Program-made: the position numbers and the translations under genes
Part shown: positions 33,945 through 35,663 of the stretch, piece after piece
How the letters are laid out: each line of letters opens with the position of its first letter
How positions within the stretch are numbered: the first letter of the stretch is position 1
From: Candidatus Hodarchaeota archaeon
GTDB lineage: Archaea; Asgardarchaeota; Lokiarchaeia; Sigyniarchaeales; SOKP01
Reading direction: 5' to 3'
NCBI GenBank assembly: GCA_048886685.1
Contig: JBHLKM010000008.1
Coordinates: 32,001 to 96,000 of the forward strand
Length of the DNA stretch: 64,000 nucleotides
The notes under the pieces: generated by a model
Seen by the model: the letters and a program-made list of their open reading frames with translations, nothing else
The model's database searches: none
What the model was told of the DNA's origin: nothing

Positions 33945-34430
33945 TTAATAGCATTTTTCCAATCCATCTAATTCAAACGAGTTTGAAAGTTTATTTAACA
34001 AACTGGTTAACTTTTCTAAATCTTCAGATGTGAAACCTTCACAACAATTCTTCAAAATGATCTTTAGTGGGGGTGTAGTGGATTTCATTTCCTTTCCTTT
34101 TTCAGTAAGCTTAACAAGAACACTTCGTCTATCTTCAGGATTATTCTCTCTATATACTAAATCATTCTTCTCCATGGTATCTATTATTCCTGTTATAGTT
34201 GAGGGGGAGCAGCAACATGCAGAAGCCAGCTCTTTAAACTGCTTCCCATCAGATTTCCATAATTCCAATAATATTGAGTATTGGGGAGGAGTAAGATTTT
34301 CACTTTTTACAACTCGACGTTGTAATTTCTCAAATTTTTTGTTTAAAAGATTAATCAATTGGAAGATTTCAGAAAAATTAAGAGTGTCCCGATTACTATT
34401 TTCCAATTTAGAATCACACATTTCAGACAT
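33945..34430 (-). CDS. MarR family transcriptional regulator with Cys-rich putative metalloid site
   Basis: LTPPQYSIL, ELASACCCSPSTITGIIDTME, DRRSVLVKLTEKG, NCCEG. Confidence 0.92.
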   Translation of the reverse strand: MSEMCDSKLENSNRDTLNFSEIFQLINLLNKKFEKLQRRVVKSENLTPPQYSILLELWKSDGKQFKELASACCCSPSTITGIIDTMEKNDLVYRENNPEDRRSVLVKLTEKGKEMKSTTPPLKIILKNCCEGFTSEDLEKLTSLLNKLSNSFELDGLEKCY

Positions 34431-34464: not shown

Positions 34465-34641
34465 TTATATCCTTAATAAATAATTTTAAGTAATCATTAT
34501 TATTCTTTTTGTTGATTATTTTTATTTCATAAGTATAAATATGATAAATCTAGACTCTAAAGATTTATATGTATGAAAGACATTAGAATATTTATATAAG
34601 ACAGAATGTTGTATAATTTTAAAAAAATAACGACAAAAAAT

Positions 34642-34757
34642 GGCTCCTGTCAATCCCCTGGATTTTTGTCTTTTGGTAGTGTAATTCGTTACACTTAAAA
34701 ATTTACCTTCTCCTACTTAATGGATTTGACCTCGTATTGAGGTTCTTGGCAGGAGCC
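34642..34757 (+). ncRNA. Candidate structured non-coding RNA (~116 nt), family unrecognised
   Basis: 12-bp terminal stem GGCTCCTGTCAA/TTGGCAGGAGCC; AGTGTAA-TTCG-TTACACT hairpin; GACCTC-GTATT-GAGGTT hairpin; G-U pairs favour the + strand; followed by CCCTTTT. Confidence 0.55.
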
Positions 34758-34817
34758 TCCCTTTATTATCAAACAATTTTAGTAATAGACTAATGTTTAA
34801 AAAGGCTCTTTAAAAAA

Positions 34818-35663
34818 TCATAATAATAGAAAGAGTTCTAACAAGTACATGTCTAAATTTAAATCTTTTAACAATTCCATGTTGTTAAAAATATAACTAT
34901 AAACGTTTTCTTCTCGAAAATATTTTAGGCATAAATTATCCCCTTTTACTTCTTTTAGTACATTAACAACTTGGGTAAGTAAATGTTTTAAACTATCGAT
35001 AACCAATTCTTTATCACATTTAATAAGATTAATATCTACTATATCAAACCAAGATTCTTTTGAGAAAGAAATATTTTTCAATTCTGGTTTTTCCTTACAT
35101 ACTTCTTGTTCTTGATAGGATTCGTAAACTAAATCTATGTGGTCCAATATTTCATTTTTTGATTTACTGTACATCTTATTTTCAATGACATTTCTCAGCA
35201 TAATGAAAATATTCTGAAATATTCCTAAGATATCAAAAAAATCTGCTGTTTGAGTTAGTGTTTCAACCTCCTCCCATTGCTTATAATAATCTTCAATTAG
35301 TTTTAGAAATGGGCGAAAAATGTTAATATCACCATCCCAATTATGTCCTTTCTTTTCCCAAACTGGATTAAATTCTTTTATAAACGCATTCTTAATGACT
35401 TCTAATCTAGTCTTTAAAGTATCTGTTTTCATCTCCTTTGTACCAGCTGCGACAAAGAGGAGATTGTATTTTGGTTCTACAATATATATCCATCTCAATC
35501 CACCCATTTCTATGGAATCAATGGATTGTTTGAATTCCATTATAGAAAATTGGTTAAATGCCGTAAGAAATCCAGAAACAATATCTTCATCGGCATCTGT
35601 TTTCAAAAATGATTTATATAACAGTTTTATCCCAGAGTCACTCTCAACGATCCAAATAATCAT
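34818..35663 (-). CDS. Hypothetical protein with N-terminal longin-like domain (Asgard-type)
   Basis: IWIVESDSGIKLLYKSF...DIVSGFLTAFNQFS...IDSIEMGGLRWIY...LLFVAA...LEVIKNAFIKEF longin pattern. Confidence 0.7.
   Translation of the reverse strand: MIIWIVESDSGIKLLYKSFLKTDADEDIVSGFLTAFNQFSIMEFKQSIDSIEMGGLRWIYIVEPKYNLLFVAAGTKEMKTDTLKTRLEVIKNAFIKEFNPVWEKKGHNWDGDINIFRPFLKLIEDYYKQWEEVETLTQTADFFDILGIFQNIFIMLRNVIENKMYSKSKNEILDHIDLVYESYQEQEVCKEKPELKNISFSKESWFDIVDINLIKCDKELVIDSLKHLLTQVVNVLKEVKGDNLCLKYFREENVYSYIFNNMELLKDLNLDMYLLELFLLL

Follow-up and report, generated by a model that had tools for sequence, protein, structure and literature searches.

The window, which is the entire 64,000-nt stretch of DNA analysed here, contains a 387-bp gap flanked by two open reading frames (ORFs), both located on the minus strand. 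One of these, at positions 33945-34430 (-), encodes a MarR-family regulator, and the other, at 34818-35663 (-), encodes a 281-aa product with no Pfam or NCBIfam match. Within the gap lies a 116-nt element on the plus strand that can be folded into a three-way junction, in which one long helix (P1) encloses two hairpins (P2 and P3) that are separated by the single-stranded junctions J1/2 and J2/3 (Table 1). A first-pass annotation had described the closing 12-bp stem with its single U-G pair (GGCUCCUGUCAA/UUGGCAGGAGCC), the UUCG hairpin, and the second hairpin, and each is present as described and forms part of the minimum free energy structure predicted by RNAfold (-39.3 kcal/mol). None of 200 dinucleotide-shuffled sequences folded equally well (average -22.5 +/- 3.4 kcal/mol), which corresponds to a z score of -4.96, whereas the minus strand yields a weaker fold with a z score of -3.78. 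The wobble pairs read as G-U on the plus strand, as had been pointed out, and this assigns the RNA to that strand. The proposal of a structured noncoding RNA gene that runs antiparallel to both neighbours also holds, and the element is intergenic and has its own U-tract end.

Table 1. Coordinates of the RNA element, its parts and flanks in the window, and of the four copies in the source genome.
Feature	Position	Strand	Evidence or remark
RNA core, A-type paralogue, P1/P2/P3 junction	34642..34757	+	Fold z score, covariance model scores, orthologues
P1, 5' strand GGCUCCUGUCAA	34642..34653	+	Pairs with 34746-34757, one U-G
J1/2, near-invariant 22 nt CCCUGGAUUUUUGUCUUUUGGU	34656..34677	+	Sm-site-like AUUUUUG and a second U-tract
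P2 hairpin AGUGUAA-UUCG-UUACACU, 7 bp, UUCG loop	34678..34695	+	Compensatory changes in 7/7 pairs
J2/3, variable pyrimidine-rich junction, window copy ...UUUACCUUCUCCUACUUAAUGGAUUU	34696..34727	+	Member alignments
P3 hairpin GACCUC-GUAUU-GAGGUU, 6 bp, 5-nt loop	34728..34744	+	Compensatory changes
P1, 3' strand UUGGCAGGAGCC	34746..34757	+	Pairs with 34642-34653; evidence as for the 5' strand
3' tail, probable terminator UCCCUUUAUUAUC	34758..34770	+	Family-wide CC(U/C)UUU flank after P1
Upstream block with TTTATATA, AAGACAGAAUGUUGU and TATAAT in this order	34591..34618	+	Recurs in closest orthologues
A-rich spacer or possible 5' leader containing GACAAAAA (34632-34639)	34619..34641	+	A-run before P1
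Paralogue A (window copy)	C8:66642-66757		Genome coordinates
Paralogue B	C24:17210-17319		Genome coordinates
Paralogue C	C7:79030-79139		Genome coordinates
Paralogue D, with a 30-nt insertion	C12:78085-78230		Genome coordinates

Other details of the earlier description require adjustment. The GC-richer island is real but modest, with a GC content of 0.31-0.36 compared to 0.14-0.24 just upstream, and the downstream sequence that was given as CCCTTTT actually reads UCCCUUUAUU. An extension of P2 by GGAUUUUUG/UAAAAAUUU can be formed in the lineage of the window copy, but not elsewhere, since other members read AUAGGAAUAACC or CUGAUUUCGCC there. Similarly, both strings of a suggested competing pairing, GACAAAAA and UUUUUGUC (34663-34670), do exist, but the pairing is lineage-specific and GACAAAAA is missing in the closest orthologues (L010-L012). 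An A-run before P1 is common to orthologues of the window copy, and its GAC is unique to the window copy. The upstream block recurs in L010-L012 and in L045 at variable distances from P1, and is a probable promoter region.

There are exactly four copies of the element in the 4.4-Mb source genome, as determined both by BLAST and with a covariance model (CM). The 22-nt J1/2 segment CCCUGGAUUUUUGUCUUUUGGU is identical in all four paralogues, with CC and a U-run after each of them. In contrast to this identity, the helices change in a compensatory manner: P1 reads, for example, GGCUCC.../...GGAGCC in one case versus GCCCCA.../...CGGGGC in another, and the GACCUC/GAGGUU pairing of P3 in the window copy is replaced by GACGC/GCGUC in paralogues B, C, and D. 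Approximately 26 full-length orthologues of the window copy (76-97% identity) were found within the same genus.

The three-helix structure is well supported by broader comparisons, and homologues were found in which all three helices are conserved by compensatory changes. RNAalifold, when applied to a MAFFT alignment of 29 members, recovers P1, P2, and P3 with seven pairs changed on both sides. In an alignment of 105 distinct sequences, which was fitted to the CM and is thus biased toward the modelled structure, 96.1% of cells are paired versus 80.2% after shuffling, compensatory changes are observed in 24 of 26 pairs, and 326 double-change cells are found versus 56 in the shuffled control. 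When pairing partners in this alignment are slid by one to three columns, pairing falls to about 22-57%. All 10 modelled pairs of P1 exhibit compensatory changes among these sequences, with 96.8% of cells paired, and the pairs of P2 vary, for instance, from A-U to U-A to G-C around a variable loop. A MI-APC scan, run independently, finds these three helices alone and lengthens P1 to 12 bp; it supports no helix internal to J2/3. The window copy scores 121.8 bits with the first model (CM R1) and 102.9 bits with the second (CM R2) on the plus strand, and antisense matches to other members, where reported, reach 31-36 bits versus 130-140 bits on the plus strand. The strongest evidence that the element is not a product of chance is comparative: paralogues and orthologues maintain three helices through compensatory changes. 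From its sequence and those of its relatives, the element is almost certainly a functional gene for a stable, structured noncoding RNA of about 116-120 nt.

Family members share an architecture in which P1, at 12-13 bp, joins the 5' and 3' ends, and CC plus a U-tract forms the 3' end. The flank that follows P1 can be summarized as CC(U/C)UUU across the family: a run of at least three T residues lies within 12 nt of P1 in 98 of 123 copies (80%) versus 31% of random genome windows, and CC occurs in the first 5 nt in 65% of copies versus 10% of such windows. J1/2 (consensus positions 15-36) has zero column entropy in an alignment filtered for the 17-nt core (101 members), and a few divergent or decaying copies do deviate within the 22-mer. 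J2/3 differs between paralogues and has a median pyrimidine fraction of 0.69. In the commonest form of the RNA, called D-type, P1 begins with GACUCCUGCC and J2/3 consists of GCCCUCCUCCCCCUAU followed by a U-rich run. CCUCC is present in J2/3 of 59 of 123 copies, and the window copy carries CUUCUCCUAC.

Among the genomes sampled, the RNA occurs only in a single family-level clade within the Lokiarchaeales (Promethearchaeota, Asgard archaea), which is the GTDB family of the window's genome, and it is nearly universal there. CM R1 yields matches in 121 of 129 sampled genomes of this clade, which represent 13 genera and carry 1-18 copies each; in other families of the order, the same search returned a single match on a 1.8-kb contig. 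CM R2, which was built from 73 diverse members, matches 24 of 24 genomes of the clade but none of the 125 genomes examined in 26 other families of the phylum. An exact 20-mer of the invariant segment was found at more than 100 loci in species-representative genomes, nearly all of which are titled as Promethearchaeota or Promethearchaeia metagenome-assembled genomes, and on at least 120 metagenome contigs. The window copy is a genus-specific paralogue, and the A-type lineage to which it belongs was found in the window's genus. Several genomes carry a single copy of the family, which is probably of the D-type, judged by its conserved position across genera.

Virus-borne copies were also considered and rejected. 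Two of three IMG/VR matches lie within a coding ORF on a genuine tailed-virus contig and, at 22 bits, are at the level of chance, and the nature of the 225-kb contig that holds the third is uncertain. The exact 20-mer on the head-tailed virus contig (L193:277-296 and L191) falls in a Lys/Pro-rich coding region, and this contig also encodes a portal protein and a ClpP-like maturation protease.

In some genomes (G135 and G122; loci L314-L343) the family has expanded to 12-18 copies, which take the form of dispersed units of ~250 bp and, in G135, of tandem pairs 290 nt apart. In the genome with 18 copies, the duplicated unit carries ~100-110 nt of upstream sequence. Several expanded copies have a 1-nt deletion within the otherwise invariant 22-mer and may be decaying. 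Such expansions, together with the 12-bp terminal inverted repeat that P1 would constitute, recall small mobile elements of the MITE or SINE type, and MITEs are likewise short, noncoding, and present in multiple copies in some genomes. The MITE alternative that had been raised earlier is contradicted by the copy number of only four in the source genome and by the orthologues that occupy conserved gene order, and a mobile or repeat element of any kind is a very improbable explanation. Copy number is low in most genomes, gene order around orthologues is retained between species and between genera, and the duplicated units include upstream sequence that is not palindromic. Furthermore, the family differs from MITEs in its RNA-type covariation, with G-U pairs on one strand only, and in its invariant internal block. 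No target-site duplication can be seen in the flanks of the window copy (AAAAAAU and UCCCUUU), and the neighbours of the four loci in the source genome include neither a transposase nor an integrase.

A role at the DNA level or in cis (as a riboswitch, a leader of the downstream gene, or a set of protein sites for the divergent upstream gene) was also weighed. The upstream neighbour is divergent for all four copies in the source genome and at 72 of 118 loci overall, and in the commonest form of the family 270-380 nt separate the RNA from a co-oriented tes gene downstream, both of which could be expected of such an element. However, the nearest downstream ORF is convergent at 60 of 109 loci, including that of the window copy, and neighbouring genes are unrelated between paralogues, on which grounds a riboswitch or other cis-acting leader was rejected. 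A probable U-tract terminator after P1 and RNA-type covariation with G-U pairs also speak against a cis-acting element, and there is very little chance that this explanation is correct.

The neighbours named across loci include the MarR regulator, a membrane protein, the Tes lipid synthase, and a helicase, and no protein family is common to all four paralogue loci. Neighbour orientation is not constant, and an ORF of at least 120 aa overlaps the element at only 2 of 147 loci. By contrast with these differences between paralogues, orthologous copies keep their gene order across species and genera. Orthologues share gene neighbours in 29-33 loci, and the 281-aa ORF is the constant convergent downstream neighbour of the A-type RNA (29 loci). 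The D-type RNA is situated between a gene for a small membrane protein and tes, and this order is kept across genera. The copies are demonstrably independent of neighbouring genes. As a separate observation, the gene downstream of the D-type paralogue (L174:6519-8267, equivalent to C12:78519-80267) encodes a tetraether lipid synthase (Tes), an assignment based on NF045702 at 452 bits against a cut-off of 450.

No known RNA family could be matched to the element, as the first-pass annotation had anticipated. A search of the whole window with Rfam 15 at gathering scores gave no matches, and a relaxed search around the element (E<=10) gave only matches at the level of chance (E 3.5-8.6), none of them on the strand of the element. 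Searching 20 diverse members at E<=5 produced one weak match that overlaps the RNA, to NEAT1_2, at 26.7 bits versus a cut-off of 60. Literature searches by topic and by motif found no description of the family or of its motif, and we regard this as an undescribed RNA family.

Several specific candidates were also tried and rejected. ARAGORN finds no tRNA in the window, and an intron-bearing tRNA is contradicted by P1 being one continuous 12-13-bp helix, by the 5-nt loop of P3 that is not a T-loop, and by the lack of CCA in the 3' flank. A divergent 5S rRNA was considered since RF00001 finds no genomic 5S gene, but a 5S-like locus with the motif CCGAACCCGGAAG is located elsewhere (C12), and the junction sequences of the element are unable to form 5S helices II and III. 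Mimicry of the 3' end of pre-16S rRNA, with which the RNA has CUGGAU, CCUCCU, and U-runs in common, was judged to be a coincidence of low-complexity sequence.

The most likely reading, to which we assign a probability of roughly 35%, is that of a trans-acting ribonucleoprotein RNA that is bound by Lsm proteins and uses J2/3 as a recognition arm. According to this model, a ring of Sm-like archaeal proteins would assemble on the AUUUUUG and CUUUUGG tracts of J1/2, on the U-tail at the 3' end, or on both, and P1 would protect both ends of the RNA. The exposed J2/3, which is rich in CCUCC in the commonest form and reads CUUCUCCUAC in the window copy, might then pair with purine-rich RNAs such as Shine-Dalgarno (SD) regions, and paralogues with different J2/3 sequences could address different targets. 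A protein partner, an action in trans, and the targets of the RNA are all parts that we infer. U-tracts of this kind are bound by Sm-fold rings, including archaeal SmAPs and eukaryotic Sm proteins, and the source genome has four ORFs with LSM domains, three of which are strong. No clade-specific Lsm paralogue was seen, and because the same LSM gene counts (3-4) occur in Lokiarchaeal families that lack the RNA, a partner specific to the clade is not indicated among these genes. Against this reading, any U-rich tract would resemble an Lsm site, and the 22 invariant nucleotides far exceed the need of an Sm ring, which suggests another or an additional partner.

Eukaryotic Sm-class snRNAs provide one point of comparison for this model. 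These RNAs carry an Sm site (RAU4-6GR) between stem-loops, and that of U7 is AAUUUGUCUAG. The invariant motif GAUUUUUGU at 34659-34667 likewise presents a single-stranded AUUUUUG between helices, in this case between P1 and P2, and the RNA shares a UUUGUCU stretch with the U7-type site. The host itself belongs to the Asgard archaea, the archaeal relatives of eukaryotes. However, the last position of the motif is U rather than the 3' purine of the consensus, there is no similarity to the U1, U2, U4, U5, or U7 families in Rfam, and no spliceosomal context is seen. Because the searches placed the RNA in a single Lokiarchaeal family and detected it in none of the other Asgard lineages sampled, it is not ancestral to eukaryotes as such.

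Complements of the 22-mer were also sought in the genome. No antisense complement with up to four mismatches exists there, including the contig with the 3' end of 16S rRNA and the start of the rRNA spacer. When wobble pairs are allowed, 288 matches are found versus 150-245 for shuffled sequences, which we judged to be none beyond chance. The lack of a long antisense target makes protein or tertiary contacts more likely than a guide role for this segment. It also weighs against an RNA that helps in the processing or modification of rRNA or tRNA, in the manner of snoRNAs or U3, through short or wobble-rich transient pairing with a conserved cellular RNA. In favour of such a helper, RNAs that touch rRNA or snRNA typically carry invariant single-stranded sequence, the assembly lacks most of the 16S rRNA, which therefore lies outside the target search, and the 5S rRNA of the clade is atypical. 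Yet the RNA has neither C/D nor H/ACA boxes and no match to snoRNA families in Rfam, and we find a helper of this type improbable.

Next in likelihood after the Lsm-bound reading, and doubtful in its own right, is an RNA that sequesters or scaffolds protein, working like Y RNA, 7SK, or 6S without belonging to any of these classes. Here, a protein that is present throughout the clade, but is not an Lsm protein, would dock on the 22-mer, and no target pairing would take place. This would account for the 22-nt invariance, the lack of an antisense target, and the near-universal presence in the clade, and it fits a shape reminiscent of Y RNAs. Y RNA (RF00019 and the bacterial Y-like RNAs) is similar in its size of ~100-115 nt, in ends that are paired in a long stem, in pyrimidine-rich internal loops, which are large in the present RNA, and in a U-rich 3' end. 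Beyond this, the resemblance to Y and vault RNAs noted in the earlier annotation is not supported. P1 runs on without interruption and covaries freely in sequence, with no conserved bulge such as that of the helix bound by Ro, no Y_RNA model match was obtained, and the gene for Ro60 (TROVE) is absent: a search of the 100%-complete genome with PF05731 was empty, and the same search detects its controls in Deinococcus and Bacteroides. For vault RNA, no vault repeat was found in the genome by a PF01505 search that was run without a positive control, and no match to the Vault CM was seen. Moreover, no conserved neighbouring gene (among the MarR regulator, membrane protein, Tes, and helicase genes) suggests itself as a partner for a scaffold, and a decoy would not need J2/3 to diversify between paralogues.

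In favour of the Lsm-bound reading, the 3' end of 16S rRNA is GGAUCACCUCCU, and GGAGG and GAGGU are enriched 4-5-fold upstream of long ORFs, so the CCUCC or CUCCU of J2/3 could pair with and mask ribosome-binding sites. Nevertheless, the motif that resembles an anti-SD sequence is degenerate in A-type copies, that of the window among them, and pairing with SD sites is expected of any pyrimidine-rich sequence and is not specific. The Lsm- or Hfq-associated trans-acting sRNAs of archaea and bacteria, including the C-rich, SD-masking sRNAs of the RsaE/RoxS type, are what we take to be a close system. They share with the present family a size of ~100 nt, an intergenic location with an own promoter (putative here) and a U-tract end, a U-rich single-stranded tract suited to an Sm-fold ring in a host with LSM genes, and a pyrimidine- or C-rich unpaired segment that is able to pair with GGAGG-type sites. 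In contrast, the present family has no sequence or CM similarity to described sRNAs, its termini are locked in a 12-13-bp helix, and its 22-nt invariant block is accompanied by multiple diverged paralogues in a genome and by an almost universal presence throughout the clade.

Sequences upstream of the core add a layer that the Lsm model does not include. In ~25-30 of 123 copies, a purine-rich box is complementary to the 3' part of J2/3 over 12-15 bp, with a few compensatory changes (U-A to C-G and A-U to U-A). In D-type copies the box is AAAUAAAAUAGGG, and A-type copies from other species have AGGCAGAAAUUUUC. Upstream complementarity to J1/2 is present in 52% of copies versus 23% of shuffles, and paralogues B and C show it at its longest, with 18 bp. 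In these two paralogues (L002:1430-1470 and L003), the box complementary to J1/2 is also a hairpin, the 3' arm of which, UUUUUUGUCUU, copies part of the invariant segment. A weaker tendency toward upstream complementarity with the single-stranded junctions is family-wide, unlike the specific pairing put forward in the first-pass annotation. These upstream features may represent a transcribed leader that forms a pseudoknot or a masking helix, or they may be promoter elements that happen to resemble the antisense of the junctions.

That upstream sequence travels with the duplicates and that boxes complementary to the junctions exist suggests a longer precursor or another layer outside the Lsm model. 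If so, the 116-nt core might be only part of a longer RNA, whose transcribed 5' leader pairs with J1/2 or J2/3 as a pseudoknot or as a masking helix that is processed off, and which could be a switch or a self-processing RNA. The distance between the box and P1, which varies from 11 to 37 nt, is unlike that of a TATA box, and the dispersed duplicates carry ~110 nt of upstream sequence. On the other hand, independent compensatory events are few, the pairing is absent or degenerate in paralogue D and many other copies, and the window copy has only a degenerate version of the complementarity. In some copies, such as L051, the boxes overlap the expected position of BRE/TATA elements, the sequence is A/U-rich and of low complexity, and no known ribozyme core or Rfam match is found. 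Such a longer RNA is, on balance, rather unlikely.

A bolder version of the Lsm-bound reading, which we hold to be quite unlikely, would make the RNA a subunit of a dedicated Sm-type ribonucleoprotein (RNP) in this Asgard lineage. A SmAP ring would occupy the near-invariant AUUUUUGUCUUUUGG of an RNA with locked ends, and a variable pyrimidine-rich arm would select RNA targets, creating a prokaryotic counterpart of Sm-class snRNPs in which the upstream boxes serve as a pseudoknot for maturation or autoregulation. Among known prokaryotes, Asgard archaea are the nearest relatives of eukaryotes. To our knowledge, their noncoding RNA content is almost unexplored, since few of these organisms have been cultured. 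The clade-wide presence, covariation, 22-nt core, and diversification of copies make this RNA a clear candidate for an important lineage-specific RNP, and it offers a concrete substrate with which the binding of archaeal Sm-like proteins can be tested in an Asgard organism. A genuine connection to Sm proteins would bear on how Sm-class RNPs originated; without one, the 22-mer would point to a partner other than those known. The CM and the motif can also be used as a marker for the clade in sediment metagenomes and to fill gaps in genome annotation.

Some observations on the rRNAs and tRNAs of these organisms were made along the way. This Lokiarchaeal family has an atypical 5S rRNA, with a 5S-like locus at C12:45321-45510 in the source genome. 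RF00001 at E<=0.001 returns nothing in this genome and only 25-29 bits (cut-off 38) in near-closed relatives (loci L170-L173), and the order of the two recognisable pieces of the 5S-like loci differs between L173 and L170/L172. ARAGORN reports only 35 tRNA genes in the whole genome. Genes for tRNA-Sec and tRNA-Pyl are among them, but those for Asn, Asp, Phe, Pro, and Trp are missing and probably have unusual introns or were left unassembled. The 16S rRNA gene is split across the end of contig C1 (422306-) and the end of contig C33 and is mostly unassembled, and the leader GAAGAAAGUUUAAUUAAGA pairs with the trailer UCUUAUUAAACUUUCUUC as expected for a processing stem.
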